The notes under the pieces are model-generated. The model had not been told where the DNA came from. It saw only the letters and a list, made by a program, of their open reading frames with translations, and made no database searches. A DNA stretch of 50,683 nucleotides from a virus: positions 1-50,683 of IMG/VR virus record IMGVR_UViG_3300047160_007712. One strand, written 5' to 3'. The position numbers and the translations under genes were made by a program. This document shows positions 1-47,494 of the stretch, piece after piece; the first letter of the stretch is position 1; every line of letters starts with the position of its first letter.

Positions 1-97
1 TGGTGGAGTATTGGACGAGGGTAGCAATGCCGTTGGTGGGCGCGGTGCCAGCGGCGATGGTTGAGTCGATGGTTGCGCCCGCGTTGCCAACAATGCG
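1..97. repeat. Terminal overlap. Bases 1-97 are identical to 50587-50683, which is either a circular-assembly signature or a direct terminal repeat.
   Basis: Read directly. The string tggtggagtattggacgagg...gcgttgccaacaatgcg occurs at both window ends. Confidence 0.95.
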
Positions 98-2695
98 TGA
101 GGTCCAGTTGCCGGATTGGGAAACAGCGGGAGTGTTGGTGATGAAGGCGTTGACACCGTTGACGGCGACGGCGCCAGGGGAGGTGCCGTAGTTGCTTGGT
201 GAGCCAAGAGCGACGCCATTCCAGCTGGCGTTGTTAACGGCAACGGTGGCGGCAATGGAGACGGGTTGGGTGACGGCCGAACCATCAACGCGCATGGCTC
301 CGGCGGTGGTTAGGGAGAGGGGCGATGTCTGGGCGGTTGTGTAGGTTGGGGCGGCGGTGGTGACGGCGGCAAGGGCTAGATAGCCTGTTTGGCCGGATGT
401 GGTTGAGCCTTGGGCGGCGGCAGTTGGTTGGTTCGCGGACGTGGCGGCACCAGTCGGGAGGGAAACGGTGCCGGAAATGTTGTTGATGTTATTGGTCGAG
501 CCGGTCAGTTGGGTGGAGAATGTGCCAGTGCCAACGACCGTGGCGTTCAGGTTGGCTGCGGTTGCTTGGGAAACCGGTTGGGTGACGGAGGAGCCGTCAA
601 CGCGGAGGTTCCCGACGGTGGTTAGGGAGAGTGGATAGGAGTTGCCGGTGGTGTCGGTCGGGGCAGAGGTGGTTGCAGCGCCAAAGGCTAGGCCGCCGGT
701 CAGGCCAGAGGTTGCGCCGCCTTGAGAGACGTTGGAGGGCTGGTTGGCAGATGTTGCCGCACCGGTTGGGAGAGAGACCGTGCCGGAGATGTTGTTGATG
801 TTGTTTGTTGCGCCGGTTAGTTGGACGGCGAGGGTACCAGTGCCGACGATGGTGGCGTTGAGGTTCGCGGCGGTGGATTGGGAGACCTGAACCGGTGTCA
901 TCGAGGCGATGCCCTGGACGGTGAGGACGCCGGTTGCTGCGGTGCCAGCGGTGCCAGAGCCAGAGGCAACGAGGGGGTTCGAAGATGTGGCGATTTCGGT
1001 GCCTGAAGCGTTGCGGAGGTTAGTGAACAGCGCGCGATTGGCAGTGACTTGCAGGGTACCCCACTGGCCGGTGGTGAGGGCATTGTTGGTTGCGGTGGTT
1101 TGGTAGAAGCCGCCGGAGGGAGCAAAGACTGATGAGCCGGCGGTGAATGTGGCTTCGTCAGTTCCGGATGCACCGGAGCCCGAGCAATTGGCGCAGGTCA
1201 TGTTGAGGTTTGCAGCGGTAGCCTGGGCGACGGTGACAGAGTTGGTGACGAAGGCATTGACGCCAGGGACGGAGACAGCACCGGGCGACGTGCCGTAGTT
1301 GCTGGGCGAGCCTAGGGCAACGCTGTTCCAGCTGGCGATGTTGTCGGAGGTTGAGACGGCGGTGGAGTTCGAGCCAGTGTTGGCGAGGGAGACTTGGACG
1401 GGGGTGGAGGAAGTGCCGATCTCGGTGCCGGATGCGTTGCGGAGGTTGACGAACGCGGCGCGATTGGCGGTGAGTTGGAGAGTTCCCCATTGGCCATTGG
1501 TTAGGGCGTTGGATGTGGCGGTTGTTTGAAAGAAGCCACCAGATGGGGCGAAGATGGAGGAACCGGCGGTGAAGGTGCCTTCGTCTGTGCCAGATGCGCC
1601 GGAGCCAGAACAGTTGGCACAGGTGATGTTGAGATTCGCCGCGGTTGGTTGCTGGACTGTGACAGCGCCGGAGATTGAGACTGGTTGGGTGACGCCGGAG
1701 CCATCGACGCGAAGGCCCCCAGTGGTGGTGAGGGAAAGGGGCGACGATTGGCCGGTGGTGTAGAGTGGGCCGCCAGTGGTGACGGCGCCGAGGGAGAGGG
1801 TGCCGGTCTGGCCAGAGGTTGTTGAGCCCTGAGCGGCCGCGGTGGCTTGGTTGGCGGATGTGGCGGCGCCGGTGGGAAGCGAGACCGTACCGGAGATGTT
1901 GGTGAGGTTCCAAGTGCCGGACTGGGCGGCTTGGGTGGCGAATGTGCCTGTGCCGACGACGGTTGCGTTGAGATTGGCGGCGGTCGGTTGAGTGACGGTC
2001 GATTGGGTGACGAAGGTGCCGGTCCCGACAACGGTGGCGTTTAGGTTGGCGGCTGTGCCTTGGGAGACGGGTTGGGTGGTGGCGGAACCATCGACCCGAA
2101 GCCCGCCGGAGGTGTTGAGGGATAGTGGCCAAACGTCGCCGGTGGTTGTGGTGGGGGCGGAAGTTGAGGCCGCGGCGAGGGCGAGAGTGCCGGTTGTGCC
2201 GGCGGTTGCTTGGCCTTGGGTCGCATTGGAGGGCTGGAGGGCGGAGGTAGCAGCGCCGGAAGGGAGGGGGAGACTGGCGGCTGAGATTGGTTGGGTGGTT
2301 TGCCAGAAGGTGCCTGAGACGGGTTGGGTTGCTTGCCAGAAGGTTCCGGTGACGGGGAAGGTGCCGCCGGTGCCGGTGACAAGCCAGGCGGTGGTGTTGG
2401 CGGTGTTGCCGGGCTGAACGGTCCAAGTGCCGGATTGGGTCGCGGCGAAGGTGGTGTTGGCGATCGATCCGCCGGCGATGTTGATGTTGAGGCCCGAATT
2501 GCCGGCGTTGACGGTGGCGGAAGTTGTGCCGTCGTAGATTTGGACCAGCGGCCAGCACGGGGCGGTGCCAGTGACGCAGTTGAAGTTGAACGGCGTGCCG
2601 GAGCCGGGGACGGTGACGTTGAGTTGGGTGGTCGTGGCTAGGGCTGGCGCGGCGAGGAGCGCTAGGGCTAGGGCGGCTGTGAGGCGGCGGATCAC
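1..2695 (-). CDS. N-terminal 898 codons of a 1224-aa repeat-rich, signal-peptide-bearing fibre/adhesin-like protein. The ORF continues across the circular junction into 50586..49607.
   Basis: Absent from the ORF track because it runs off the window edge. My own minus-strand translation starts at GTG 2695, which overlaps the TGA of ORF 2692-2874 (GTGA). It is stop-free to base 1: (M)IRRLTAALALALLAAPALATTTQLNVTVPGSG...AANLNATVVGTGTF...ISGTVSLPTGAATSANQ...CANCSGSGASGTDE. The two other minus frames hold only R/P/H-rich shadow ORFs. Confidence 0.8.
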   Translation of the reverse strand, partial: MIRRLTAALALALLAAPALATTTQLNVTVPGSGTPFNFNCVTGTAPCWPLVQIYDGTTSATVNAGNSGLNINIAGGSIANTTFAATQSGTWTVQPGNTANTTAWLVTGTGGTFPVTGTFWQATQPVSGTFWQTTQPISAASLPLPSGAATSALQPSNATQGQATAGTTGTLALAAASTSAPTTTTGDVWPLSLNTSGGLRVDGSATTQPVSQGTAANLNATVVGTGTFVTQSTVTQPTAANLNATVVGTGTFATQAAQSGTWNLTNISGTVSLPTGAATSANQATAAAQGSTTSGQTGTLSLGAVTTGGPLYTTGQSSPLSLTTTGGLRVDGSGVTQPVSISGAVTVQQPTAANLNITCANCSGSGASGTDEGTFTAGSSIFAPSGGFFQTTATSNALTNGQWGTLQLTANRAAFVNLRNASGTEIGTSSTPVQVSLANTGSNSTAVSTSDNIASWNSVALGSPSNYGTSPGAVSVPGVNAFVTNSVTVAQATAANLNMTCANCSGSGASGTDEATFTAGSSVFAPSGGFYQTTATNNALTTGQWGTLQVTANRALFTNLRNASGTEIATSSNPLVASGSGTAGTAATGVLTVQGIASMTPVQVSQSTAANLNATIVGTGTLAVQLTGATNNINNISGTVSLPTGAATSANQPSNVSQGGATSGLTGGLAFGAATTSAPTDTTGNSYPLSLTTVGNLRVDGSSVTQPVSQATAANLNATVVGTGTFSTQLTGSTNNINNISGTVSLPTGAATSANQPTAAAQGSTTSGQTGYLALAAVTTAAPTYTTAQTSPLSLTTAGAMRVDGSAVTQPVSIAATVAVNNASWNGVALGSPSNYGTSPGAVAVNGVNAFITNTPAVSQSGNWTSRIVGNAGATIDSTIAAGTAPTNGIATLVQYST

Positions 2696-2874
2696 TCAAA
2701 CTCCACAGAGTTTGTCGTCGCGCAGAGGATGGTGGTGAGGGTGGTGACGGAGGAACAAGCGGGCGGGGCAGGTGTGCCGCCGCCGGACTGGGCATCAGTG
2801 ACGCCGTGAAGGGTTTGGGCGTCGGCGGCAAGGGCGAAGAACATGGCCATGACTAGCCAAAGCCAACGGTTCAT
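2692..2874 (-). CDS. Small secreted protein (60 aa), function unknown
   Basis: ATG at 2874 overlaps the upstream stop (ATGA). N-terminus is MNRWLWLVMAMFFALAADA/QT: positive n-region, hydrophobic core and an AxA site. I trimmed this from the track ORF 2692-2979. Confidence 0.6.
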   Translation of the reverse strand: MNRWLWLVMAMFFALAADAQTLHGVTDAQSGGGTPAPPACSSVTTLTTILCATTNSVEFE

Positions 2875-3362
2875 TGGGAAATTTGCCAACCCCACATGGT
2901 GACTGAGGCGGTTGTGCCAGCGCCGCCAGCTGGGACGGTTAGGGTGATGGCGGTGTTGGGGTTGGTCGCGCCGACGCATTGCGGGAATGCAACGCCGAGA
3001 ATGCCTTGGCCGGAAGAAACAAAAGTGTAGGTGAAGTACATTGTGCCGCCGACCACGCCGGTGATGGTGGGCTGGACGACGGCCGCGGTGGTTGTGCCGC
3101 CGGAAGAGATGACGAAGCCGCAGATGTAGTTGACCTCGCCGGGGGCAGCACTGAAGGCGGCGGAAAGTGTGCCGGTTGTGCCGAAGGATGACGCGGTGAT
3201 GTTCGCGCCCACACCGCCGGAGGGAGTGATGCCTTGGGCGACAGCGGGGCGAGAAAGAAGGCCCAGGGCCATCAAGATGATGAAGCCCAATGACATCATC
3301 GAGACCCTGGGCCCTACGCCAGGAGGAATAGGACGGGAGGAAATCCCCGCTGGCGATCTCAT
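2871..3362 (-). CDS. Secreted beta-rich protein (163 aa, or about 142 aa from the internal MMS start), function unknown
   Basis: Track ORF. ATG 3362 overlaps the upstream TGA (ATGA). Contains MMSLGFIILMALGLLSRPAVA/QG, a signal-peptide-like segment. The rest is G/T/S/A-rich. Confidence 0.65.
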   Translation of the reverse strand: MRSPAGISSRPIPPGVGPRVSMMSLGFIILMALGLLSRPAVAQGITPSGGVGANITASSFGTTGTLSAAFSAAPGEVNYICGFVISSGGTTTAAVVQPTITGVVGGTMYFTYTFVSSGQGILGVAFPQCVGATNPNTAITLTVPAGGAGTTASVTMWGWQISQ

Positions 3363-3901
3363 TCTGCTGTTACCTTTCGAGCTCGGGCCATGGCGGCTTC
3401 GAGGCGGTCGGCCATGCCAATGTTGACGTTGAGGTCTTTGGTTTGCTTTCTTGAAAGGCCGACACGGTCATGGGCGTCGGCCTGAATGGCGAGGAGGTTG
3501 GAAAGTGGGAGTGGGAGGTCCTCGTCGTCGAGGATGTCGTCGATGCGTCGGCCGGCCTTAACTGCACGGGCTTGATAGGCGGCGGTCTCACGGGCGAGGA
3601 AATCGGATTCCTCGTTGAATGCCAGGGCGCGATAGTGGGCTTGGAGCTCGATGTTGGCTGGATCGCGTTTGAGCAGGCCAATCATCGCGAGCGAGAAGCC
3701 GGTCATCTGGGCGACTTCATAGTCTTTGTAAAGGCCTGAAGCGAGAAGTCGGGCGACGCGATGATGCGAGTCCTTGAGCTTTTGAAAAGGCTGTTGGACC
3801 GCCCGTTCGCGCAGATGTGACAAGTCCGCCTCGGTCAGCGGGCGGACTGAGAGAATCGTCGCTGTGCCGGGCTTGCGGTGGGCTAGGCGAGACGGCGGCA
3901 T
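3359..3901 (-). CDS. HTH DNA-binding protein, possibly the terminase small subunit (180 aa)
   Basis: Start trimmed to ATG 3901, which has GGAG 11 nt upstream. The segment HHRVARLLASGLYKDYEVAQMTGFSLAMIGLLKRDPANIELQ has the layout of TerS N-terminal HTH domains. This is pattern-level only. Confidence 0.45.
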   Translation of the reverse strand: MPPSRLAHRKPGTATILSVRPLTEADLSHLRERAVQQPFQKLKDSHHRVARLLASGLYKDYEVAQMTGFSLAMIGLLKRDPANIELQAHYRALAFNEESDFLARETAAYQARAVKAGRRIDDILDDEDLPLPLSNLLAIQADAHDRVGLSRKQTKDLNVNIGMADRLEAAMARARKVTAE

Positions 3902-4053
3902 GTGAATATGAACTCCGGAGGTTTGGGCTCGGGCGGCGGCTGGGGCGAGCGGTGGATTAGATCGAACACAATTCGCGCCGGAATATCCCGTTCGCGCAGC
4001 CAAAACACCGTCGCCGGCCGCAACAAATCGCCCTTCCGAATATACTTCCTCAT
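3883..4053 (-). CDS. Small basic protein (56 aa), possible DNA-binding regulator on a near-leaderless mRNA
   Basis: ATG 4053 begins MRKYIRKGDLLRPATVFWLRERDIPARIVFDLI. It lies about 11 nt downstream of the -10 of the candidate promoter at 4064-4092. It overlaps the next ORF by 19 nt. Confidence 0.4.
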   Translation of the reverse strand: MRKYIRKGDLLRPATVFWLRERDIPARIVFDLIHRSPQPPPEPKPPEFIFTCRRLA

Positions 4054-4570: not shown

Positions 4571-4698
4571 GGGCTTAGTCCTCTCGTGGCGTGATTGCCA
4601 CGGTCAACAGCCTCCCACACCATTGTGGCGAAAGTATGACAAGTTGAGAAAATAAATTTGTTCCCCAAATGTTCTCATTCCGTTCTCCACCTGTTCTG

Positions 4699-4803: not shown

Positions 4804-4854
<51 letters not shown>

Positions 4855-4866
4855 TACATATACCAC

Positions 4867-16664: not shown

Positions 16665-17892
16665 GACTGATGCAGAGAATATTCTTGACACACCCCGCGG
16701 GGTTATAAACCGAAAGTGTGAGTCGTGGATTGCTAGCTTCATCGCTGAAACCTCCAACCTCGGCGCGCCCACCATCTGGCGGCAATGGGCGGCGATCTCT
16801 GTCATCGCCGCGGTCCTCGAACAGCGCGTTTGGCTCCAAACCTCCTCCCCGCTTTATCCCAACCTCTACCTAATGATCGTCGGCCCACCGGGCACTGGCA
16901 AGACCAGAACATTGCGTGTTGCCAAACGCCTGCTCCTAACCATCCCCGAGTTCGGCCTCGCCCCAACCTCCGTCACGTTCCCAGCCCTGGTCGACGCGAT
17001 GGACCTTTGCAAGCGCACCATCGCCATCCCAGGCTCTGACGAAGTCCAAGAATACAACTCCATCTACATCTGCGCGGAAGAGCTCGGCGCATTCATCCAC
17101 AAGTGGGATGAGGAAATGATCAAAGGCCTCTCCGCCTTCTACGACGTCGACCCCTACGCCCAGAACCGCCGAACCAACGATCTCAAGATCAAAATCGACC
17201 GGCCACAAGTCAACATGATCTGCGCCTGTACGCCCCAAGACCTGCTCAAACTCATGCCCGATGTCGCCTGGGGTCAGGGCTTTACCTCGCGCACTATCAT
17301 GATCTATTCCCCCGAGCGACTCAAGGTCGATGACTTCGCCCGCCGCCCGCCGCCCAAACTCCACAATCTCTCCTTCGACCTCAACATCATCCACAACCTC
17401 TCCGGGGAATTTCATGCGACTAAGGAATACATTTCGCGCGTTAATTCATGGATCGATCAAGGTGAGCCGCCCATTCCCAAACACCCTAAACTTCTCCATT
17501 ATATTTCCCGCAGAAAGGTTAATATTTATAAACTGTCAATGGTCGCATCGGTCGATCGATCAAACGCCCTCGTCCTCCGTGAGGAAGACTTCAATCGAGC
17601 TTACAACTGGCTATGTGAAGCCGAGTCACTCATGCCGGAGATCTTCAAAACCGGCGCGGTGAACCTCGACGCCCAGGCCATGGACGAAATCCGCCACTTT
17701 GTCATGGCGGCCGATCGGGGCAAGGGCGTTGAGGAACACAAGATCACCTACTTCGCGCGGGATAAGATCCAAATCAGCATGATCAAACACATGCTCGACA
17801 TCATGGAAGGGACAGGCATGCTGCGCAATCGCGGCGTTGATCCGCGGACGGGGTATCGCCTGTTCTCGGCCTCCGATCCCGAGGCCGATTAA
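16597..17892 (+). CDS. P-loop NTPase, DUF3987-like putative replicative helicase (431 aa)
   Basis: Walker A MIVGPPGTGKT and Walker B-like IYICAEELG. AAAGGAG lies 9 nt upstream of the ATG. It overlaps the polymerase 3' end by 68 nt. Confidence 0.6.
   Translation: MTTESELHKQKYSTGLSQDRLRKTDAENILDTPRGVINRKCESWIASFIAETSNLGAPTIWRQWAAISVIAAVLEQRVWLQTSSPLYPNLYLMIVGPPGTGKTRTLRVAKRLLLTIPEFGLAPTSVTFPALVDAMDLCKRTIAIPGSDEVQEYNSIYICAEELGAFIHKWDEEMIKGLSAFYDVDPYAQNRRTNDLKIKIDRPQVNMICACTPQDLLKLMPDVAWGQGFTSRTIMIYSPERLKVDDFARRPPPKLHNLSFDLNIIHNLSGEFHATKEYISRVNSWIDQGEPPIPKHPKLLHYISRRKVNIYKLSMVASVDRSNALVLREEDFNRAYNWLCEAESLMPEIFKTGAVNLDAQAMDEIRHFVMAADRGKGVEEHKITYFARDKIQISMIKHMLDIMEGTGMLRNRGVDPRTGYRLFSASDPEAD
17866..17888. 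terminator. Hairpin at the convergence point of the two arms
   Basis: TCGGCCTC (17866-17873) pairs with GAGGCCGA (17881-17888) around a 7-nt loop. There is no clear U tract on either strand. Confidence 0.25.
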
Positions 17893-18356
17893 CCCCCGGC
17901 CGGCGTTTCGGCCCTAGCCACATACTCCCCAAGCACAAATTCCCTATGCTCGCCATTGCGCCGAGTCACAATCTCGGGCGGTTGGTCCCACCACAGCAAC
18001 GCCTCAGCCGCGCCGGGTTTATCCCCCGCATTGAGCCGCTGAAGGAACGTCGAGTTCAAGAAATTCGTCGAGCCGACATTAAACACAAACGAACAACACG
18101 CATCATGCTCCCACTGCGTCAACACCGTCGTCACCGCCAGCGCGACTTCATCCCTAAACGTCGCGGCGTCATTGTAGAAGATCTGCTCGGCCTGTTCTTC
18201 CGTAATCACCATTCCCTGATAAACCGTCGGCGGCCCAGCGGCGGAGGTATGGCCGAGGCCGATCGTCAGCACCCCCGTCGTGTCCAGATACGCCTCTAGC
18301 CTCAAGCCCTCGCGCTCATGCAAAACCCTATACCCGTCCTCGCTGAGTATCATCAC
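17889..18356 (-). CDS. Endolysin, GH24 (T4/lambda-type) lysozyme (155 aa)
   Basis: HEREGLRLEAYLDTTGVLTIGLGH matches the E-x8-D-x5-T catalytic signature of the lysozyme family. Confidence 0.85.
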   Translation of the reverse strand: MMILSEDGYRVLHEREGLRLEAYLDTTGVLTIGLGHTSAAGPPTVYQGMVITEEQAEQIFYNDAATFRDEVALAVTTVLTQWEHDACCSFVFNVGSTNFLNSTFLQRLNAGDKPGAAEALLWWDQPPEIVTRRNGEHREFVLGEYVARAETPAGG

Positions 18357-32593: not shown

Positions 32594-32824
32594 CTAGGCG
32601 TGATCGGGCTCCTTGGTTGTGTTCAAGCCCGCGATTGGGATCACATCCCCGGGCAAGAACGGGTTGACGATAACATAGATCGAAACAATCGTCGTGGCCC
32701 AGGATTGGATGTAGTCCACAACCCACTGTGGGATACCGAGCGGGAAGTGGACCGCGCCTTGGGATGCCGCGGCGACTACGGCCATGACGATGGAGATGGC
32801 CAGGCCCCATTGCTTTTGGGTCAT
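32594..32824 (-). CDS. Holin candidate, two predicted transmembrane helices (76 aa)
   Basis: The hydrophobic stretches are WGLAISIVMAVVAAASQGAV and WATTIVSIYVIVNPFL. It follows the tail fibre, as T7 gp17.5 does. Confidence 0.5.
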   Translation of the reverse strand: MTQKQWGLAISIVMAVVAAASQGAVHFPLGIPQWVVDYIQSWATTIVSIYVIVNPFLPGDVIPIAGLNTTKEPDHA

Positions 32825-33063
32825 TTGGGTGGGTCCTTGGATGCGGTTGGAGGCGATTTCACCGCGTCGAGTTGCTTTTTTAAATCCGCGATTTCCTTTT
32901 CATCGGATTGAACCTTGGCGTTCAGCGCTGCAACCCGGCCATTGGCCTCAGTGAGGAGCTGGACGTAGCTGTCCACCACTGGGTCCGGCGGGGGCGGGCT
33001 TGGGCTTTGGGCCAGCGCTGGGCGCAGGGTGAGCAACATGCTGAGCAGCAATAATCTCTTCAT
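32821..33063 (-). CDS. Signal-anchor/coiled-coil protein (80 aa), i-spanin-like
   Basis: MKRLLLLSMLLTLRPALA/QS, then a Pro-rich stretch, then the coiled coil VVDSYVQLLTEANGRVAALNAKVQSDEKEIADLKKQL. It overlaps the fibre 3' end by 116 nt. Confidence 0.5.
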   Translation of the reverse strand: MKRLLLLSMLLTLRPALAQSPSPPPPDPVVDSYVQLLTEANGRVAALNAKVQSDEKEIADLKKQLDAVKSPPTASKDPPK

Positions 33064-35698
33064 CGTGCTTTACCTCGGTTTTGAGTTCTTGGACGGATTT
33101 GATCAACAGGGCGATTAGGGGCAGAGGTTCAAGCGATTGCGGCTGTGGATCACCGTCGGTGGTTAAGGCCCCAAGCTCGCCCTCAACCGCCTCGGGAAGA
33201 ATTGGCTGCACCTCGGTGGTTAGCAGGCCACTATGGCGCTTGAAGTCATCGCGGTAAATTCCTACATCGGCCCAATTGAAGGTTACGGGCCGGAGCTTCA
33301 TCAACTTGTCCAGCGCCCCATCGGCCATAGGCTCGATGTTGTGTTTGACCCGTGGGTCGGAGGTGAGGGAGATTGAGCCCTCGTTGGTTGAGTCGATCCA
33401 GAGTTGAGCAGCCGAACCGGTCCAGAAGATGTTGAAGTGGTTCGCGCCGTATGAGCCCGTCGCGCCGTTGCGAGATGTCCAACCCTGAGCCGCGGCGAAA
33501 CCATTGTAGCCGACGCAGAACAGACATGGAACAGTGTCGGAAGTACTGCCGTAGAACAGGAAGCTGGCGGTGCCGTTGGTCAGTGCGGACTGAAATGCGT
33601 GGAAGCCGTAGTTGAACGTCGCGCCGCTGAAGCCGGTTATGCCAATGGCGGCGGTCGAGCTGGTCGAACCCATCGCCGCGATCCAAAGGCCGACTTTGAA
33701 GTTGGTGGTTAGGTTCGGGACATAGGAGCCGTTGTTTTGGACATCGATCTCATCGCCGATCAACTGCCCATCGCCGCCCGAGACGATGTGCGCGACATCA
33801 ATCCCGCCCCAGATTTCGCAGTTCGAACACGACGAGGCGATGTCGCCCTCACGGCGCAGGCCAGTTGAGCCACCGCCGTTGGTTTGATAAAGGACGTTGT
33901 GGAACCACCCGCAGTCAAATTCCTGGGCCTCTAGCGCGGTGGTTTCGTTGTCGCAGCCGTAGAATAGTCCCTGCTGTGGGCCAGAGTTGTTGTTAAGCCT
34001 CACGGCGAAGCGGTTGTAGGAGTTGTTGAAGCCCCCAGCCCATGGCGGGTCTGAACCACCGGGCGCGGTGTTGGGGGAGTTGAAGTTGAAATCTGTCACG
34101 GCGTTGTTGCTGATCACGCCAGTGGCGTTGATCATCGTGGTGTATTTGAGTCGGCCGGATGAACACCCAAGCCCCGAGTCGATGATGCCGGAAGACCACG
34201 TGACACAATCGTTGGCGGTTGGGACCGTGGCGATGGTAGCAAGGCCCGAAGCGGCGTTGGTTGAATTGCCAAGCGCGGTGAGGACGCCTGTGCCAGCAGC
34301 GGTGCCAGACACGGCGGTGCCAGTTGAGGCGTAGTAAGCCAATTGGCCCGACGTGCCGGAGTTGACTGTGCCGGAGCCTGAGCCTGAGCAACTGGCCCAA
34401 GCCATGGCCGTCACGCCGGCGTTGGTGATTAGACATTGGTTCGCGGTGCCGAGGGCGGTTAGGCCTGTGCCACCATAGGCAAAGCCGATTGCGGTGCCTT
34501 GCCAAGTGCCGGTGGCGATGGTGCCGATGGAGGTCAGGGATGAGAGGGTTGTCACGGCGGAGGTTGCAAAGCCGCCAGAGCCGTTTGCCGCAATGCCAAG
34601 CGCCGTGATCACGCCCGCGCCAACGGTCAGGCCCGAGACGGTGGTGCCAGTGGCGGCATATTGGGCGAGCTGGCCAGAAGTACCGGAGGAGACGGTCCCC
34701 GAACCGCCAGAGGTGGTGCATGAACCGCCAGCATCAGCGATGGTGCCGCCAGTGCCAACGTTCAAGCAATGGCCGGTGGTTAGGGTGCCAGTGACCGCGG
34801 CATATCCGCCCGCCGTGCCATTAGCAATTGCAAGAGATGCAAGAACACCTGTCCCAGCGCCGGAGAGATGGGCGATGGTATAGCCCGTGGCGTTGGTGAG
34901 TGTGCCAGATGCGGGCGTGCCGAGGGCCGGGGTCACCAAGGTTGGGGAGGTTGCGAGGACAACTGATCCGGTCCCAGTCACGGCCTTCTCACCGAGAACA
35001 TTAGCGTTGTTGTATTCAATATTCCCGCTCGTGCCGCCCGAGATCGCGGTTGTGCCGACGATCATGTTGTTACTCGCCGCGCATGTGGCCCATATCATCG
35101 CGGTGGCGGAATTGTTGGTTGTGAGGCATTGATTGGACGTGCCGAGGGCCAAAAGGCCGGTGCCACCAGCGGTGAATGGGACCACAGCCTCGCCGCTAAC
35201 GGTGGTGCCGGTCGAGGCGTAGTAGGCGATCTGGCCGATGGTGCCGGACGAGACGGTTCCACTTCCGCTGCCGGTAGCGCATGCAGCCCACATCATGGCA
35301 GTCGCGCCGGAGTTGGTGACTAGGCATTGGCCGGATGTGCCTAGGGTGGTGAGGCCCGTACCGCCTTGGGTAAAGCCGACGGGGACTGTTGGGAAACCGC
35401 CGGTGGAGTTGGCGGCGATGCCTAGGGCGGTGAGAACGCCAGTGCCAGCATTGGTGCCACTGACAGCCGCGCCGGTTGTGGCGTAGTAGGTCAACTGCCC
35501 ACCGGTGCCGGAATTGACAGTGCCAGAGCCCCCACCACCGCCGCCATGGGCTTGAACCCATGCGGTCGAGGCGCAGGCGTTGGAGTTGTCGCCCGCGGGC
35601 CGGGTCGGGCAGAAGACCGGGGCCTGGGCGTGGGCCTGGGACGCACCGAGGGCGATGAAAGTGGCGAGGAGAAGCCTTTTGAACATCGGGATCCTCAT
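32948..35698 (-). CDS. Tail fibre with a C-terminal S74 intramolecular-chaperone domain (916 aa)
   Basis: SDPRVKHNIEPMADGALDKLMKLRPVTFNW (residue 780 onward, about 33061-33361) is the endosialidase-chaperone signature. GSGTVxSGTxGQLxYYAxTG repeats are present. The N-terminus MFKRLLLATFIALGASQAHA/QA looks like a signal peptide. Confidence 0.8.
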   Translation of the reverse strand: MRIPMFKRLLLATFIALGASQAHAQAPVFCPTRPAGDNSNACASTAWVQAHGGGGGGSGTVNSGTGGQLTYYATTGAAVSGTNAGTGVLTALGIAANSTGGFPTVPVGFTQGGTGLTTLGTSGQCLVTNSGATAMMWAACATGSGSGTVSSGTIGQIAYYASTGTTVSGEAVVPFTAGGTGLLALGTSNQCLTTNNSATAMIWATCAASNNMIVGTTAISGGTSGNIEYNNANVLGEKAVTGTGSVVLATSPTLVTPALGTPASGTLTNATGYTIAHLSGAGTGVLASLAIANGTAGGYAAVTGTLTTGHCLNVGTGGTIADAGGSCTTSGGSGTVSSGTSGQLAQYAATGTTVSGLTVGAGVITALGIAANGSGGFATSAVTTLSSLTSIGTIATGTWQGTAIGFAYGGTGLTALGTANQCLITNAGVTAMAWASCSGSGSGTVNSGTSGQLAYYASTGTAVSGTAAGTGVLTALGNSTNAASGLATIATVPTANDCVTWSSGIIDSGLGCSSGRLKYTTMINATGVISNNAVTDFNFNSPNTAPGGSDPPWAGGFNNSYNRFAVRLNNNSGPQQGLFYGCDNETTALEAQEFDCGWFHNVLYQTNGGGSTGLRREGDIASSCSNCEIWGGIDVAHIVSGGDGQLIGDEIDVQNNGSYVPNLTTNFKVGLWIAAMGSTSSTAAIGITGFSGATFNYGFHAFQSALTNGTASFLFYGSTSDTVPCLFCVGYNGFAAAQGWTSRNGATGSYGANHFNIFWTGSAAQLWIDSTNEGSISLTSDPRVKHNIEPMADGALDKLMKLRPVTFNWADVGIYRDDFKRHSGLLTTEVQPILPEAVEGELGALTTDGDPQPQSLEPLPLIALLIKSVQELKTEVKHDEEIIAAQHVAHPAPSAGPKPKPAPAGPSGGQLRPAPH

Positions 35699-38538
35699 TT
35701 AATCGGGAACGGCCAGATTGGGAACCTCCCACTCGCGCCGGGAAGGCCGCTAAGGACGATCGAGCCAGTCGCGCCGCCGTTTGTCACGGATGTAACCTCG
35801 ATCGGGCCGGTTATGAATGGCCATGGGCTATAGGTGGTGTCAGGCTGTTGGATCGGCGGCCAGAAGAAGATGCCGTTGGTGTAGAAGCTGGCGCCGAGAA
35901 AGTAGTCAGAGAGGGTCGTGGCATCGCCGGTTGGTGACCAGGTTACGTTAGAGACTGTCATGGAGCCGGTTGAGAATGTGCCATAGTAGACTTGATTTCC
36001 CGGCAGCCATTGGTTGGTGTTGATGACGACGAAGCTGCCACCGCCAAGGGTGGTTGCATTGATGGTGTTGGAGGAATAAATGCCGCCAACGAGATACAGG
36101 CCGTTTTGCTGCTGGGTGGTGATGGGGAAATTGCCCGATCCATCCGCCGCGCCGACGGCAATGACAAGGAAGATAATGCCGCTGTTGATGTGGTAGAGCA
36201 ACCACCCCGGCGCGACCTTGGCGTTGCCGAGGGCGGAACCGTAGGTTGAGGACTTTAGTGTGAATGACATGTAATCGCCCGACCATGTGGGGCCGACTGA
36301 CATGTCGTTGGAGACTGAGATCGTCGCCTCACGCGGGACCTGAACAGTCCATGTTTTGCCAAGTGTGTCACGGAACCATTTGCCGGACTGTACCATTGTC
36401 CATGTGTCGAAGATGATTTCATCACTAAGCTGTTGGGTGATTACGGTGTAGGACGGGTCGTTGCCGCTGATGGCGGGGGCGTTAGTGCGGCCATACCAGC
36501 GGGTTTGATCAACTGGCAGGCCGAATGTTGGGTCGTTGGCGTTGAAGCGTGGCGCACCAGCGAGCAGGCCGCCGGTGTAGTTCATGGCTTGTTGCACCCA
36601 CGGCGCGGAGAAGGTGATGGTATCACCCGAACCAACGCCCGGGCTGACGACATTGGCGCTGATCGTGACGGTGGTGGCGGTGTAGGACACGACTGTGGTG
36701 TTGGCCGGGATCGAGGCGGAATTCGCGGCGGTGGCGTCGATGACCCGCATGCCGGTGACTACATTAGACGGAACGCCGCCGGAGAAGTTGAGCACCCTGC
36801 TGCCGATTGCTGTCGTGCCGCTGGTTGTGGCGTTGAAGGCCGCCGAGATCTGGTTGGCCATGGTGTAGAAGTTGCAGTTGTCAATTTCCAGCATTGGCGC
36901 GCCGTTGTTGCATTGGACTATCGTCGTCATGCGCGGTACATCACCAATGGCGCAGTTTTTGAATCTGAATGGTATAGTAGCGAAGACGGTGGTGAGGAGA
37001 TATGGTGGGATGAGCCCGCCCGTTGGGTTGAGGTTGAACTTGCAATCTTCGAATGTTATCCCGGAGTTGAAGCCCAATGCGCCGGAGACGTAGCCGAGGA
37101 GCGTTACATCCTCACAGTAGCAACTCCGAAACGAACACGGCCCTGCCTGGCCCATTTGCAGACTGAACCACCGCTGGCAGGATTGGAAGCTGGTCGAGAT
37201 GGCGTTTAGTTGCCAGAGGCCATGGAATTGGCCATAGTTGGTGTTGTCGAGCGCATAGCACAGCGTCCGCATTTGGCAGTTGCGCAGCTCTACCAATCGA
37301 CTGTTTTGTTGGTAGATGCCGATGCCGATTGAGCCAACGTCGATGATGCAGTCGTTAAACTTGGCGAAGTCACCTTGGGAGTTGGCGTTTAGGCCAGCGC
37401 CATAGCCCATTACGAAGCCCGCAATGCGGACTGACTCCATGGTTACGCTGGAGGAAAACAGTGGGTTGTTGTAGGTTGTTATTGTCGGGGCGATTGCCAG
37501 AACCCAAGCGGGGAATGTGATGTTTGGGTACGGGGCCGATGGTGGGCCGCCGCTGTACGGGTCGATCGCCACGCCGACAAGTGGGGTGTTGTTCTGAAGC
37601 CCGCCCGGGGTTGAGCCGGAGGCGTTGAAGTTCGGATCCATCCAGTCGAATTCGTCGTCTGAACGGGCGCCGCTATTGCCTTGGGCGTTTTGGGCGAAAT
37701 TGTACATCGGGCCGAAGAGGGAAATGTTGCGCAGCCCACACATCCGTACGCCTTGGAAGACGATCGCCGGCGCGTTGTTGATCGTTGAGAAAATCTTCGC
37801 GCCGGCTTGGGTAAAGTCTAGGGGAAATCGGTTCGCGCCAACGAGCGAGACCTCATGAAAGGCCTCGCCGTAACCCATGTGGAGGGTGTTGGTGATCTTG
37901 TATGCGCCGGATGGTACATAGACCTCCGGCCAGTTCGATTGCATTGCGGCGTTGATGGCGTTTTGGAACGCGGTTGTGTTGTCGGTGCCGGTGATGTTGG
38001 TGGAATTGCCTGGGTACCAGGCTGAGAGCCAGAGGTTTGGGGCGGTGGCTACTGGGTTGCTAACGGTGATTGAATTGCCCGGGCCGATGCCAGTGATGGT
38101 GGTGTTGAGTGGGACGTTTGTGCCGCCACCTGAGTGCCAGTTGACTAGGGCAATGCTCATGCCGGTGGCGATGAAGCCGTTGTTTTGAGAGATTAGAGTT
38201 ATAGTGGTTGTGCCGTTGGCCGAGACGTTCAGATCGCCGCCGCCGGTGTTGTAAGCGGCATCTGCCACCGCGCCGAACTGTTTGACGTTGAGTTCCAGCG
38301 CGACTTGAAGCCAGGCGGCCGAGCCATTGCCGCCGGTCGGGACAATGATCGAGCCACCATTGTCGACGTAGGTTCCAGCGGGGGCGCCAACAGCGCCGGC
38401 GAACACATTCTGGCCGCCGTCATTGGAGGTGGTGTAACCCGCGGTTTGGGCGATGAAGCCGGTTGATGCAGGCGTGAGGAGACGTAACGCCGCGATGTTT
38501 GAGACAATTTGAGGATAAAAGCCGCCGACGATTGCCAT
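35695..38538 (-). CDS. Tailspike/depolymerase, pectate-lyase-type beta-helix (947 aa)
   Basis: LNVKQFGAVADA... and TDNTTAFQNAINAA...VYVPSGAYKITNTLHM are typical N-terminal motifs of the pectate_lyase_3 / GH28-like fold. Confidence 0.65.
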   Translation of the reverse strand: MAIVGGFYPQIVSNIAALRLLTPASTGFIAQTAGYTTSNDGGQNVFAGAVGAPAGTYVDNGGSIIVPTGGNGSAAWLQVALELNVKQFGAVADAAYNTGGGDLNVSANGTTTITLISQNNGFIATGMSIALVNWHSGGGTNVPLNTTITGIGPGNSITVSNPVATAPNLWLSAWYPGNSTNITGTDNTTAFQNAINAAMQSNWPEVYVPSGAYKITNTLHMGYGEAFHEVSLVGANRFPLDFTQAGAKIFSTINNAPAIVFQGVRMCGLRNISLFGPMYNFAQNAQGNSGARSDDEFDWMDPNFNASGSTPGGLQNNTPLVGVAIDPYSGGPPSAPYPNITFPAWVLAIAPTITTYNNPLFSSSVTMESVRIAGFVMGYGAGLNANSQGDFAKFNDCIIDVGSIGIGIYQQNSRLVELRNCQMRTLCYALDNTNYGQFHGLWQLNAISTSFQSCQRWFSLQMGQAGPCSFRSCYCEDVTLLGYVSGALGFNSGITFEDCKFNLNPTGGLIPPYLLTTVFATIPFRFKNCAIGDVPRMTTIVQCNNGAPMLEIDNCNFYTMANQISAAFNATTSGTTAIGSRVLNFSGGVPSNVVTGMRVIDATAANSASIPANTTVVSYTATTVTISANVVSPGVGSGDTITFSAPWVQQAMNYTGGLLAGAPRFNANDPTFGLPVDQTRWYGRTNAPAISGNDPSYTVITQQLSDEIIFDTWTMVQSGKWFRDTLGKTWTVQVPREATISVSNDMSVGPTWSGDYMSFTLKSSTYGSALGNAKVAPGWLLYHINSGIIFLVIAVGAADGSGNFPITTQQQNGLYLVGGIYSSNTINATTLGGGSFVVINTNQWLPGNQVYYGTFSTGSMTVSNVTWSPTGDATTLSDYFLGASFYTNGIFFWPPIQQPDTTYSPWPFITGPIEVTSVTNGGATGSIVLSGLPGASGRFPIWPFPIK

Positions 38539-38541: not shown

Positions 38542-39183
38542 TCAGAGCCCACAGACGAGTTTGATGACATCAGTGCCGATGCCGTTGACGGTGACGGTGA
38601 CGGAGCCGCCGGATGGTGTGCCCTCAACGGCGTAACTGGTGTTGGCCGGGGTGGTGCGGTCGGCGGTGACACAGTTAGGCTGGGAAGAGCCGGTGTCGGA
38701 GAAGGTTACGTTAGCTGTGCCCGCGGAGAGAGTTACGGAGGTGTTGTAGGATGAGCCAGAGCTGCCACCGCCCATGCCATTGCCACCGGCGGATGAGAGC
38801 CAGGAATTGTAAACGGAGGAGAATTGGAGTTGGAAGCTGGTGTTGGGCGTTGTGCAGGTGGTTGGGTAGCTGCCGATGGTTGAGCCGTCGGTGGTGAGGA
38901 GGTTGAGGGTGGTGATGGCGTAGCGGCAGGTGAGTTGGATGATCTGGCCGTCCCATGGCGGGTTGGGGAGGGTGATGTTCCAAGTCGTGATCGCGCCGAT
39001 GGGATAGAGGTTGAGGTTGGTTGGGTGGTTGAAGCTCGCGGCGACGGTGGTGTTGGTGACGGGGGAGGTAGGGACGACGTTGATCACGCCAGTTGCGTAG
39101 ATCGGCGGATTGATGTAGCCCTGCTGCGCCAGAGCAAGCCCTGGAGCCAACGCCAGTGCCAGTGTGGTTAGCCACTTGATCAC
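38542..39183 (-). CDS. Signal-peptide protein (213 aa), fibre/adaptor-like
   Basis: GTG 39183 overlaps the upstream TGA (GTGA). The N-terminus is (M)IKWLTTLALALAPGLALA/QQ. Contains WNITLPNPPWDGQIIQL. Confidence 0.55.
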   Translation of the reverse strand: MIKWLTTLALALAPGLALAQQGYINPPIYATGVINVVPTSPVTNTTVAASFNHPTNLNLYPIGAITTWNITLPNPPWDGQIIQLTCRYAITTLNLLTTDGSTIGSYPTTCTTPNTSFQLQFSSVYNSWLSSAGGNGMGGGSSGSSYNTSVTLSAGTANVTFSDTGSSQPNCVTADRTTPANTSYAVEGTPSGGSVTVTVNGIGTDVIKLVCGL

Positions 39184-40149: not shown

Positions 40150-40770
40150 TCAGTTCTCCGTCCAGATGAAGGTGATGTTGATAGCGCCGGTGGAGATGGT
40201 CTTGCCGTCGAGATTGACGCAGATTTGCTGGACCACTGTCCCGGCCTTGGGGATTTCAAAGGCCTGGGTGATGGGGAGGACATCTTGGGGAGAGGAAACA
40301 AAGGTCGGGACATTGGGAGAGGTGGTGACTTGGAAGGCCTGCGCGAAGGCCGCGAGCAGGGAAGGGGTGGAGTCGGTGACAGTTGGATTGGCGGAATAGG
40401 AGACGAGAGTCGCGGTTGAGGCGGAGTTGAACGGGCTCAATGGCGCGGCGACGGGAAGGGCAAGGCCGGTGTTGGCGGTGCCGCCTGTGTCGAGGGAGTG
40501 GTTGAGGTTGATCATGATCGGGGTCGTGATGGCGGTGCCAGCTGAGCCCGAGACGATGATTTCCTTCAACGAGACATTGCGCGACGTTGAGCCGTTTAGG
40601 CACATTAGGTCTGTGGCCGCTGCGGGCGGGACCATGAGCACGCCCGAGGCCGAGTAGGTTGGTTGGGGGACGTAGCCGGAGATCACGCCGGGTTGTGGCA
40701 CGACGTTGACTTGGGCGAATGCTGGGGCAGTGAGCCCCAGCAACGCGGCGGTGGTGAGGAGCTTGCGCAT
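40150..40770 (-). CDS. Signal-peptide protein (206 aa), function unknown
   Basis: ATG 40770 with AGGAC about 9 nt upstream. The N-terminus is MRKLLTTAALLGLTAPAFA/QV. Confidence 0.6.
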   Translation of the reverse strand: MRKLLTTAALLGLTAPAFAQVNVVPQPGVISGYVPQPTYSASGVLMVPPAAATDLMCLNGSTSRNVSLKEIIVSGSAGTAITTPIMINLNHSLDTGGTANTGLALPVAAPLSPFNSASTATLVSYSANPTVTDSTPSLLAAFAQAFQVTTSPNVPTFVSSPQDVLPITQAFEIPKAGTVVQQICVNLDGKTISTGAINITFIWTEN

Positions 40771-45702: not shown

Positions 45703-45987
45703 TTATTGTCCGAGTAGGGTTTTGCCCTGACCGCCAATGGTGGAGGCCTGGGCGGGTGGGGCGGCGGCAGCAGCGAGGAAGGATGGCGTTTGCTGTGGGA
45801 CGGCGGAAGTGTTGGTGCCTTGGGGCTGCTGTGCGGGCGGGGGAGTGGGCGGGACGTTGGGCGCGGCGGGGGCTTTAGGCCTTGGGGCGAGGAGACTGCC
45901 AGCCGCGCCGACTAGGGCCGAGCCAAGGCCGATGGCGGCCGAGACTGGATCGCAGAGGATGACGTCGTAGAAGAATGGGAGTTTCAT
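45703..45987 (-). CDS. Hypothetical P/Q/A-rich protein with one hydrophobic segment (94 aa)
   Basis: Track ORF whose ATG overlaps the TerL stop (ATGA). Confidence 0.5.
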   Translation of the reverse strand: MKLPFFYDVILCDPVSAAIGLGSALVGAAGSLLAPRPKAPAAPNVPPTPPPAQQPQGTNTSAVPQQTPSFLAAAAAPPAQASTIGGQGKTLLGQ

Positions 45988-47492
45988 GCTGCGAGTCTTT
46001 CGGGGGAGTATGGATCATATTCAGATTCAACGAGGTCCTTGTGGGGGAATTCGCCGCCGGCTAGGGCTGAGGCAACCAACGGGCCGCCAAAGGTTAGGGC
46101 CAGCGCGTCGAGATCGTCGAGGACGAGGTTGGGGTTGTCTTCGAGGAGGTCTTCTTTGGAGACAAGGAGTATCGCCCCGGTTTTTTCTTGGAAGATGTAG
46201 CGAATGGAGAGCATGGCGGTTTTCAGCTCGGGGTCATTGGGCAGCGCGGCGGTTTTAAGCCAAGCTCTGACAGCACCGTACATCGCAGCTCGCATATTGG
46301 CATACCGCTCTCCGGAAGTGTCAAGGCTAACTCCGGAAATGGAGTCCTTTGCGCCGAATTGCACTTCGTGAACAGCAAGGCGGATGTTACGACACTGATC
46401 AACAACGCCGCCGCCAACGCCACCGCCATCGATGTATATGCCATCTGGGCGCCAATCGACCCAAGCGTCGAAGATGCGGTTGGTGAGGTCGGTGGTGGAG
46501 AGGCCATTGTAAGATCGGCGGGCGATTGATCGGGCATCACGGCCTTTGCGGGGAAAGAGGACGGAGTTGTTGCCGCCGTAACGGGCGACGTCAACACCAA
46601 GGGCGAGGGGAGTTGCGCGGTCAGTGTAGGGGACTTCGCGCGACATCGCGGCGTCGATCTCGGAGACTGAGAAGAACTCCTGCATGCCGCGGCGTGGGAA
46701 TTGGCCGAGGACACGGATGCGGACGAAATCACTGTCGGCCCCGTAGAGGCGGATCCATTGTTCGAACCGGGCTTTGTTGGTGATGCGGACTGTGCGGGAG
46801 TCGATTTGGGTCGAATGCCATGCGTCGGCGTGGGTTCCACCCGGGAAGCATTCGCGAAATCGGCCAGTGTTGCGGGTGGGGTTGCCGAAGACCAGCCAGA
46901 GGATTTGCGTGTCGGTGTCGGTGAGGGCGCCCTCGGCTGTTTCCCAGATGATGTCGTCGATTTCGGACGCTTCGTCGAAGACCAGCAGAATGCGCTTGCC
47001 TTGGTTGTGAAGGCCGGCGAATGCGGCGGGGTTGTTCTTGGACCAGGGCACCATGTCGATTCGCCAGGTGAATTTGCGCGTTGGATCACGCGAGAACAGG
47101 GCGGTGGCTTCGAGCTGGAATAGGTCGCGCGCGAAGAAGCAGAGGTTAAACCATTTGCCGAGTTCTGCCCAGGTTTTGGTTTTAAGTTGGACCTCGGTGT
47201 TGGCGGTGATGGTGCCGCGGCAATCGGGGTAAGTGCAAAACGCCCAGAGGATGAGCCAGGCAACGGTGGCGGATTTGCCAATGCCGTGGCCCGAGGCGGT
47301 GGCTTCTTGGATTGCTTGGTTGGGGGTCAGGAGGCCGATGCGAATTCGCTCGAAGAGGTTGCGTGACCATTCGTCGGGGCCGGAGTACTTTTCAAGAATT
47401 GAACCCGGGACATTCCATGGGTAGGCGGTCTGGGTGAACGCCAGTGGGTCGTTCTGGACTGAGACTAGCCATTCTAGGACTTTTTCGTCCAT
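45984..47492 (-). CDS. terL: Terminase large subunit (502 aa)
   Basis: Walker A ATASGHGIGKSAT and Walker B ILLVFDEAS. Start trimmed to ATG 47492 (MDEKVLEWL), 2 nt after the upstream stop. Confidence 0.85.
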   Translation of the reverse strand: MDEKVLEWLVSVQNDPLAFTQTAYPWNVPGSILEKYSGPDEWSRNLFERIRIGLLTPNQAIQEATASGHGIGKSATVAWLILWAFCTYPDCRGTITANTEVQLKTKTWAELGKWFNLCFFARDLFQLEATALFSRDPTRKFTWRIDMVPWSKNNPAAFAGLHNQGKRILLVFDEASEIDDIIWETAEGALTDTDTQILWLVFGNPTRNTGRFRECFPGGTHADAWHSTQIDSRTVRITNKARFEQWIRLYGADSDFVRIRVLGQFPRRGMQEFFSVSEIDAAMSREVPYTDRATPLALGVDVARYGGNNSVLFPRKGRDARSIARRSYNGLSTTDLTNRIFDAWVDWRPDGIYIDGGGVGGGVVDQCRNIRLAVHEVQFGAKDSISGVSLDTSGERYANMRAAMYGAVRAWLKTAALPNDPELKTAMLSIRYIFQEKTGAILLVSKEDLLEDNPNLVLDDLDALALTFGGPLVASALAGGEFPHKDLVESEYDPYSPERLAA

Positions 47493-47494
47493 GG

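Follow-up and report, generated by a model that had tools for sequence, protein, structure and literature searches.

The stretch of DNA analysed here, hereafter the window, is the IMG/VR record IMGVR_UViG_3300047160_007712 over its full length of 50,683 nucleotides (nt). Its first and last 97 bases are identical, with bases 50587-50683 duplicating bases 1-97, and the window is therefore one turn of a circular genome of 50,586 bp with a GC content of 58.5%. The virus is a BPP-1-like (Rauchvirus-like) soil podovirus. This report concerns a block of late genes that lies across the junction of the circle, between a TerS-like gene and the gene for the terminase large subunit (TerL), and in which five adjacent genes predict products beginning with export signals, the largest being a repeat protein of 1224 amino acids (aa). 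The order on the minus strand is the TerS-like gene (214 aa), genes for products of 163, 60, 1224 (across the junction), 195, 225 and 284 aa, TerL, and the portal gene. The genes of the interval between the TerS-like gene and TerL, here called the slot, and its two borders are listed below, with a slash marking the predicted cleavage site.

3359..4003, minus strand: TerS-like 214-aa gene, the upstream slot border; in 23 related loci a homologue (34-72% identity) immediately precedes TerL or the cargo.
2871..3362, minus strand: 163-aa signal-bearing protein; signal or anchor segment LGFIILMALGLL, then AVA/QG; 2 Cys; ATGA overlap with the upstream stop codon.
2692..2874, minus strand: 60-aa signal-bearing protein; MNRWLWLVMAMFFALAADA/QT; 2 Cys; no lipobox; signal read by eye.
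1..2695, minus strand: 5′ part of the 1224-aa gene; predicted signal peptide aa 1-20, 2-Cys N-domain aa 21-80, then repeats.
49607..50683, minus strand: 3′ part of the 1224-aa gene; predicted beta-sandwich at about aa 930-1045, 4-Cys C-terminal domain aa 1101-1224.
49033..49620, minus strand: 195-aa protein; Sec-like N-terminal extension of 25-30 aa, MFSNSRLRAFLAASLSLLWASTSLA/V; 2 Cys.
48359..49036, minus strand: 225-aa protein; predicted twin-arginine (Tat-type) signal and a jelly-roll domain of about 160 aa; mature part without Cys.
47495..48349, minus strand: 284-aa protein without a signal, conserved partner of the 225-aa family; matched by a 274-aa protein of locus L148 (BLASTP E 2e-9), with phmmer matches in L011, L150 and L148.
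45984..47498, minus strand: TerL, the downstream slot border; phrog_2 and phrog_5902; 58 related loci.

From the TerS-like gene to TerL, neighbouring genes are joined by 4-nt ATGA or GTGA overlaps, the exceptions being a 14-nt overlap between the 1224-aa and 195-aa genes and a 9-nt gap between the 225-aa and 284-aa genes. The TerS-like protein includes a helix-turn-helix-like segment, read by eye only, and has no Pfam or PHROG match. The block proteins gave no real Pfam or PHROG matches, those to Anti-TRAP and DnaJ being CxxC noise, and the 1224-aa protein itself also has no sequence match in PDB. An autonomous moron of the Lom or Bor type was rejected for the block, on the basis of gene overlap, as its genes overlap their late neighbours by 4 nt on both sides.

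Signal calls were made with our own rule-based scan, which considers the charge of the n-region, an uncharged hydrophobic core and the -3/-1 rule. A Sec-type signal was defined by a positive n-region, an uncharged hydrophobic h-region of 7-15 residues and small residues at -3/-1 (AxA), no more than about 30 residues from the start, and a Tat-type signal by an S/T-R-R-x-F-L-K motif followed by a moderately hydrophobic h-region and an AxA site. On this scale E. coli signal peptides score 4.7-5.6, and the Tat signal of TorA reaches only 3.1. The scan flagged none of 155 homologues of TerL, portal, capsid and TerS taken from related loci, and 0.8-1.9% of start-initiated, stop-free 45-codon segments in the six frames were signal-like, the real signals being counted in. 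At least eight late proteins of the window have signal-peptide-like N-termini, namely those of 163, 60, 1224, 195 and 225 aa (the last Tat-type) in the block, and others of 206, 213 and 916 aa. Scores are 4.8-5.8 for the 1224-, 163-, 916-, 213- and 206-aa proteins and 4.2 for the 195-aa protein. In most of the signals the h-region is short, at 10-14 residues, and a canonical AxA site comes after it.

An earlier note on this DNA, made from the sequence alone, had read Sec-type signal peptides at the start of the 1224-, 60- and 163-aa open reading frames (ORFs). These readings stand, the N-termini being as read then and each conforming to the Sec-type definition above. The 1224-aa ORF starts with GTG at 2695 on the minus strand, passes base 1 and ends at 49607; its N-terminus is MIRRLTAALALALLAAPALA/TTTQ, and GGAG lies 8-11 nt upstream of the start. 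The N-terminus of the 163-aa protein contains MMSLGFIILMALGLLSRPAVA/QG, and the hydrophobic segment is kept by every candidate start, either at 3362 or at Met22/23. The note had also described five adjacent genes that all look exported. All five do bear signals, but that of the 225-aa protein, which has a single possible start and a 43-aa N-region followed by ISRRAFLGAAALSPFLIPTAALA/ATQ, is by its twin-arginine motif Tat-like rather than Sec-like, and the N-terminal extension of the 195-aa protein is absent from its homologues. The 195-aa gene has an alternative GTG start at codon 26, and its signal is the least certain of the five; the long form is favoured by gene packing, by the lack of a Shine-Dalgarno sequence before the codon-26 GTG and by the chance rate of <2%. 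Mis-called starts, which according to the note could undo the signals, were rejected. The 1224-, 916- and 225-aa genes have no other start codon in their first 68-75 codons (for the 1224-aa gene, no further ATG, GTG or TTG within 75 codons), and their signals therefore cannot be removed by re-calling starts.

Signals are not confined to the junction block, to which the earlier note had assigned them, as the fibre of the tail module and two small neighbours were also signal-bearing when the scan was extended to the whole genome with starts corrected.

32948..35698, minus strand: 916-aa tail fibre; predicted Sec signal MFKRLLLATFIALGASQAHA/QAP; GAGGA before the second ATG; 18 Cys; T4-like distal-fibre tip.
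35695..38538, minus strand: 947-aa tailspike-like protein, no signal by the scan; short match to phrog_2234 (tail spike), E 1e-7.
38542..39183, minus strand: 213-aa signal-bearing protein; GTG start; IKWLTTLALALAPGLALA/QQGYINPP.
40150..40770, minus strand: 206-aa signal-bearing protein; MRKLLTTAALLGLTAPAFA/QV; 2 Cys; homologues in L088, L093 and L099 are also signal-bearing.

The mature N-domain of the 213-aa protein is a domain of about 110 aa (QQGYINPPIYATG...NLNLYPIGAITTWNITLPNP) that is also found as the N-terminal domain of signal-bearing spike-like proteins of 727-994 aa in L031, L036 and L045, and it looks like an adaptor that may be split or fused.

The 916-aa protein carries a 22-aa N-terminal Cys-loop motif, C.TRP.GD.SNACASTAFV, which has no significant match in GenBank phages (tblastn). 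A search with the pattern GD..NACASTAFV retrieved 58 viral contigs. Upstream of the motif, 52 of the 58 have a signal scoring at least 4.5 and five have a lower-scoring but visibly signal-like segment, the remaining contig being too truncated to judge; none has signal-less upstream sequence. In nearly all of them the motif starts 2-5 residues past a predicted AxA/Q site. This fixed distance suggests that the free mature N-terminus matters, and a short invariant element at the new N-terminus followed by a variable body would look like a docking element.

The slot was compared in 58 related viral contigs, which carry TerL at 36-84% identity. Both borders are visible in 22 loci, where the slot is empty in 3 and occupied in 19. 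The cargo consists of 1 to 4 unrelated genes, a typical set comprising a small signal protein of 120-160 aa, a large protein of 500-1300 aa and another small one, and 18 of the 29 ORFs in the 19 loci are signal-like, as against 0 of the 155 cytoplasmic controls. No protein similar to those of the window block by BLAST was found among the occupants of the related slots. The TerS-TerL interval is a hypervariable cargo slot in this clade, and retention of the signal where the slot sequences diverge points to real export. The slot of L027 is occupied by a protein of the 1127-aa type that belongs to the tail module in the closest relative of the window (see below), and the TerS-TerL and tail-module slots therefore hold interchangeable cargo. 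Directly upstream of TerL in the same locus (3253-3470) is a 72-aa ORF fragment similar to residues 1-45 of the 163-aa protein (phmmer E 2e-5); the fragment may be a recombination scar at a cassette border.

The mature part of the 163-aa protein is Gly/Thr/Ser-rich. It is related to the beta-rich C-terminal domain of a 478-aa ORF in L064 that itself bears a signal (phmmer E 1e-6). The possibility that this protein is a stand-alone C-terminal domain of the 1224-aa type was dropped, as hhalign against the domain profile gave a probability of 1%. Spanins of the Rz/Rz1 type were also rejected, as the 60-aa protein would be cut at ADA/Q without a Cys at +1 and the 163-aa protein has the mature composition given above.

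Comparison with homologues shows where the signals begin and end. About 50 homologues of the 225-aa protein, each about 161 aa long, start M.TNFLW..GTSNNGLL, which corresponds to the window sequence right after ALA/ATQFLWGPGTSNNGLL (ALA/ATQFLW). Only P0282, with 69% identity, has the same extension, including ISRRAAFG. In P0282 the 43 residues ahead of the twin-arginine motif (YRPR.[IV]GFDP.G..P[IV]LEGEG) are conserved as well as the mature domain; conservation of an n-region is unusual for signal peptides and suggests an extra function, e.g. chaperone binding. The 15 homologues of the 195-aa protein, of 154-165 aa, all lack the Sec-like extension, their first residues aligning with about residue 31 of the window protein. 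Predicted cleavage would give the 225-aa protein the native N-terminus of its homologues, and the 195-aa protein an N-terminus within about 5 residues of theirs. A signal-less module of 992, 154, 170 and 274 aa in L148 parallels the window order of 1224, 195, 225 and 284 aa. The 154-aa product matches the 195-aa protein (phmmer E 1e-34) and the 274-aa product matches the 284-aa protein at the E value listed above; the 992-aa product was paired with the 1224-aa protein by gene order, and the 170-aa product (BLASTP E 0.19 to the 225-aa protein) by gene order only. Conversely, the 284-aa protein, signal-less in the window, has a homologue (~10916-11790) with a predicted twin-arginine signal (VSRRSLILGAGAGLITRPALA; MKVSRRSLILGAGAGLITRPALA) in L011, in the tail region of a prophage on a 222-kb contig of an alphaproteobacterial metagenome-assembled genome. 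The L011 gene lies among genes for signal-bearing fibre-like proteins and adjoins an amidase-like gene. Taken together, the comparisons point to signals having been added to otherwise cytoplasmic families, with a whole module converted to signal-bearing form. Cleavage of the signals is argued for by the canonical AxA sites and by mature N-termini that match those of signal-less homologues.

The 1224-aa protein has more than 1600 homologues. It consists of the signal, a small 2-Cys domain, repeats at residues 80-890 (mapped by BLAST of 80-aa pieces), a beta-sandwich and a 4-Cys C-terminal domain. In an AlphaFold2 model of residues 880-1224 the mean predicted local distance difference test (pLDDT) score is 78, with both domains >90. 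Among the best 120 homologues, 65 have signals and 47 do not, and the C-terminal domain is present in 23 of the 65 signal-bearing and in none of the 47 signal-less proteins (p 5e-7). This domain, the C-terminal 125 residues (alignment A1), was used for a profile search of 1.84 billion representative proteins, which found a family of 5718 cluster representatives at E ≤1e-3. In all but one of the 150 matches listed, the match ends within 3 residues of the C-terminus. Among the best 144 of the 5718 proteins, 116 have signal-like N-termini, 16 have none and 12 are ambiguous, and the number of Cys residues is even in 113 of the 116 signal-bearing members.

An even Cys count is also a feature of the signal-bearing proteins of the compared loci, being found in 40 of 50 mature signal-like proteins versus 141 of 352 other proteins from the same loci (Fisher p 9e-8). 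The 10 Cys of the 1224-aa protein form five evident pairs (40/47, 359/362, 501/504, 1104/1135 and 1157/1206), the 18 Cys of the 916-aa protein form nine, and the 163-, 60- and 195-aa proteins have 2 each. The mature 225-aa Tat substrate has none, as expected for a protein that folds before export. Paired cysteines give indirect support to export, translocation itself being predicted.

By homology, the signal-bearing proteins are identified as fibre or spike proteins. The repeats of the 1224-aa protein are common to the 47 signal-less homologues, which differ from it at both the N- and the C-terminus. Signal-less proteins with these repeats, starting MADPIVHITNGIPD... or MANITTVNL..., are in our view ordinary fibres. 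At its C-terminal end the 916-aa protein has 190 residues that match the tips of distal long tail fibres in T4-like phages infecting Klebsiella, Salmonella and Synechococcus (332 phage records) as well as phrog_33119. A signal-bearing 727-aa slot protein in L031 carries the endosialidase intramolecular-chaperone domain Peptidase_S74 (E 4.6e-9), and several other slot proteins resemble beta-helix spikes, as judged by eye from sequence. The mature 225-aa jelly-roll was modelled with a mean pLDDT of 80 and gave weak fold matches to carbohydrate-binding module (CBM), TNF and C1q domains; in some homologues a jelly-roll of this type is fused to fibre C-termini. No match was found in a PDB sequence search with the 1224-, 916- and 947-aa proteins, and the one GenBank phage match of the 1224-aa protein in tblastn was weak and metagenomic, annotated 'glycoprotein repeat'. 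The best PDB fold match of residues 880-1224 is XepA (Foldseek E 3e-4, template modelling (TM) score 0.24-0.29; YomS TMt 0.46), and neither XepA nor YomS has sequence similarity to the 1224-aa protein. The fold matches (XepA/YomS, Ena pili, CBMs, TNF/C1q) were rejected as a basis for function, since they reflect generic jelly-roll likeness and are too weak.

Pfam and PHROG scans identified further genes of the window. The portal is T7-type (Head-tail_con, E 9e-126), and the genome also encodes the large terminase, a prohead protease, a major capsid protein and two tail tubular proteins, as well as a DNA polymerase of family A, a UDG-exonuclease and a helicase-like protein. No integrase was seen among the window genes scanned. 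The nearest cultured portals are those of Bordetella phage BPP-1 (38% identity) and of Caulobacter Rauchvirus phages, and megablast with 25 kb of the window gave no nucleotide match to GenBank phages. Sequence-identical copies of the 195-aa protein are encoded on contigs of JGI, ENA and Logan samples, and a 50,683-bp JGI/ENA contig is recorded as carrying the 225-aa protein. Proteins of 712 and 1904 aa we take, from their position, to be internal virion proteins. The latter (18583-24297), the last of the virion module, carries an LPD22 domain at its N-terminus (Pfam E 4e-10) and has homologues of 35-37% identity in the relatives; it is probably an ejected internal protein. Further features are as follows.

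30297-31451 and 27398-30289: tail tubular proteins.
17889..18356, minus strand: soluble endolysin (Pfam Phage_lysozyme, E 1e-31), its N-terminus without a signal or a signal-arrest-release (SAR) segment.
32594..32824, minus strand: 76-aa membrane protein, candidate holin; hydrophobic segments read from sequence.

The divergent intergenic region 4650-5100 contains an unbroken A40 tract (~4813-4850) with GGATATC-type iterons (~4700-4745 and ~4912-4960) and ATTAATGGA repeats on both sides of it, and a perfect TTGACA-17-TATAAT promoter consensus (~5018-5046) directed at the plus-strand early genes; the whole resembles an origin or regulatory hub. The first plus-strand ORF past this promoter region (5107-5565) predicts a very proline-rich 152-aa protein with repeated PSHPI motifs.

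Signals are present on the late proteins described above, persist across diverged relatives, co-occur with the cysteine signature and are found on proteins with fibre identity. Export of the fibre or receptor-binding module is accordingly well supported, and we regard it as very probable. The junction block (163, 60, 1224, 195 and 225 aa, with the signal-less 284-aa protein) would be a receptor-binding fibre module carried as exchangeable TerS-TerL cargo, whose components leave the cytoplasm, four via cleavable Sec-type signals and one via a Tat-type signal. The fibre proteins and their small partners would cross the inner membrane, lose their signals at the AxA sites to signal peptidase, and fold and oligomerise in the oxidising periplasm with formation of disulfide bonds. 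Lacking both signal and SAR segment, the endolysin should depend on a canonical holin to open the inner membrane, for which the 76-aa protein is a candidate. Only at holin opening or lysis would the periplasmic fibres meet the DNA-filled, tailed but fibre-less particles, onto which they could dock through their new mature N-termini. The membrane lesions of canonical holins are very large. In podovirus assembly the receptor-binding protein is added last, in a separable step, and for P22 this final addition of tailspikes to heads works in vitro. We infer actual export, cleavage, disulfide formation and post-holin docking from the features above. The reading that the receptor-binding proteins undergo oxidative folding in the periplasm and dock onto virions once the holin has acted we put at a little short of an even chance. 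The broader proposal, a large group of uncultured soil phages that make receptor-binding fibres or spikes and accessory proteins in the periplasm and have a two-compartment assembly pathway, is put forward tentatively.

A place in the virion is suggested by the relatives. The closest, IMGVR_UViG_3300047508_000210, shares 90% identity with the window in the portal and 93% in the capsid, and between its capsid gene and its tail tubular genes the only fibre-sized proteins, of 746 and 1127 aa, are both signal-bearing. The tail-module fibre-sized proteins of L086, L093 and L034 are likewise only signal-bearing, and the TerS-TerL slot of L034 is empty. Of the options offered in the earlier note, a fibre type not yet described fits best, with repeats and tips common to ordinary fibres and signals on all tail-module fibre-sized proteins of close relatives. 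The note had also called export signals on a fibre-sized late protein unexpected, and indeed no published precedent was found. Several observations weigh against assembly from the periplasm. No tailed phage is known to us to draw its virion proteins from the periplasm, and a literature search found neither signal-bearing tail fibres nor periplasm-sourced virion proteins of tailed phages; in the cultured Rauchvirus Jess A, of the closest cultured genus, none of the structural proteins bears a signal. After its signal the 1224-aa protein shows only the small 2-Cys domain and no recognisable virion anchor. Proteins of its type occur elsewhere upstream of TerL in a phage with a P22-type portal, immediately behind a portal of this type and, in an HK97-like prophage on a 918-kb contig, between the genes for head completion and those for the tail; such varied, moron-like positions fit accessory cargo better than an essential virion part. 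In the window the 284-aa partner has no signal, and the signal-less 947-aa spike could serve as the receptor-binding protein. The survey of the closest relative covers 33 of 50 kb, the late region from TerS to a 1901-aa protein, with the rest assumed by synteny to be early genes, and the signals are predicted by a heuristic scan of our own.

A second view, likewise offered in the earlier note, is that the proteins are exported but never enter the virion, the fibre- or spike-like proteins acting instead on the envelope of the infected cell or on its surroundings. They might bind or cleave surface polysaccharide or a receptor from the periplasm or, after lysis, block superinfection or keep progeny off debris, functional analogues being T5 Llp and periplasmic tailspike-like enzymes such as WceF, a Tat-exported bacterial protein (PMC7949094). 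The evidence for export applies equally to such a role, the empty slot of some relatives means that the cargo is dispensable, and both the scattered positions of the 1224-aa type and the retained 947-aa spike agree with it. We consider it unlikely, though the main rival. The tail modules of the closest relative, L034, L086 and L093 have no signal-less fibre candidate, and these phages would be left without a receptor-binding protein. Moreover, the genes are translationally coupled in the late operon and are not early or separately expressed, and receptor-binding proteins docked on virions usually show a short conserved motif at the mature N-terminus and variation in the rest. Uncleaved signal-anchors that tether fibres or assembly intermediates to the inner membrane, concentrating them at the lysis site or holding them inactive until release, would account for the 21-aa region before the hydrophobic segment of the 163-aa protein and the 43-aa region of the 225-aa protein (conserved in P0282), both longer than typical n-regions. 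Membrane tethering had been raised in the earlier note but gained no specific support; the h-regions are mostly short and followed by AxA sites, the predicted cleavage recreates the N-terminus of the homologues (225 aa) or comes within about 5 residues of it (195 aa), and the fibre motif keeps its fixed distance of 2-5 residues past the site in the 58 contigs. We judge tethering improbable.

A part in lysis, with the exported proteins standing in for spanins or acting like XepA in breaching the envelope, is brought to mind by T7, where the TerS-TerL interval holds the spanin genes. An endolysin-like gene and one for a small membrane protein are also present in the L031 slot, and XepA, the best fold match of the C-terminal region of the 1224-aa protein, is from the PBSX lytic cassette (E 3e-4; PMC6834076). 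That match is weak (TM 0.24-0.29) and jelly-rolls are common, however, the 60-aa protein has no lipobox Cys and the 163-aa protein has, by eye, no coiled-coil-like composition. Hypervariable fibres or spikes of 500-1300 aa with tail-fibre tips and endosialidase chaperones are not needed for lysis, and we hold this role to be very improbable. Least credible of all is that there is no export, the hydrophobic stretches arising by chance or composition (Ala/Leu-rich products of a 58.5% GC genome) or from wrong starts. The extension of the 195-aa protein, absent from 15 of 15 homologues and preceding an alternative GTG start, could be so explained. This would not account for the absence of flagged proteins among the 155 controls, a chance rate of <2% per start site and main proteins without alternative starts. 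Nor does it explain signals in 116 of 144 members of the 4-Cys-domain family and a signal-like segment before the fibre motif in 57 of 58 contigs, or a cysteine parity that differs sharply between signal-bearing and other proteins.

To our knowledge, the textbook view is that every tailed-phage virion protein folds and assembles in the cytoplasm. The host-range-deciding proteins described here carry conserved export signals and a disulfide signature, and differ thereby from every characterised fibre or spike. Neither feature is local to the window, as the clade's standard fibre family in 58 viral contigs and a C-terminal-domain family across thousands of protein clusters are involved. The finding could prove to be a new assembly pathway. 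If the proteins are virion parts, assembly spans two compartments, infectivity is gained only at lysis, and the phage depends on the Sec, Tat and Dsb functions of its host. If they are not, late export of large receptor-binding-like proteins is common among soil phages and would represent an unrecognised form of host-envelope manipulation. Annotation pipelines that equate a signal peptide with 'not structural' or with a secreted auxiliary enzyme would misclassify these genes, and recombinant production of such receptor-binding proteins would need periplasmic or oxidising expression.

Among known systems, the T7 gp17, P22 gp9 and K1F endosialidase-type proteins share fibrous repeats, variable distal parts and a late-operon position with the proteins described here. 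Further likeness to podovirus fibres and spikes is seen in the T4-like distal tip (916 aa), the endosialidase-type chaperone of one slot protein and the combination of a conserved N-terminal motif with a variable remainder. However, known podovirus fibres and spikes have no signal peptide and assemble in the cytoplasm, whereas the 916-type family has a cleavable-looking Sec signal and paired cysteines, and its conserved N-terminal element, unlike theirs, is only about 22 residues long. T5 Llp, lambda Lom and Bor and the spanins Rz/Rz1 are phage proteins with Sec or lipoprotein signals, some of them encoded within or beside late genes; the spanin genes of T7 lie between TerS and TerL. All of these proteins are small and unlike fibres, and they are often transcribed from a promoter of their own or expressed early or from the prophage. 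In contrast, the proteins of the window and related loci are up to 1224 aa long, receptor-binding-like and hypervariable, are translationally coupled to the terminase genes and have no lipobox.

XepA, a jelly-roll protein of the PBSX prophage lytic cassette, forms a pentameric dumbbell (PMC6834076). Grouped here with YomS of SPbeta, it gave the best PDB fold match to residues 880-1224 of the 1224-aa protein (two beta-sandwich domains), and it is exported and encoded at the end of a late operon. The host is Gram-positive, there are no fibre repeats, and the match to the 1224-aa protein is weak (E 3e-4, TM 0.24-0.46); PMC1266369 lists XepA under non-classical secretion, without a signal peptide. 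WceF of Pantoea stewartii, a trimeric tailspike-like glycanase that is exported via Tat (PMC7949094), shares tailspike architecture, signal-peptide export and action on surface polysaccharide. No sequence relation between WceF and the window proteins was found in the Pfam and PDB searches. WceF is a single chromosomal protein of an exopolysaccharide biosynthesis cluster, whereas the proteins predicted here belong to a phage late-gene module that includes exported partners.

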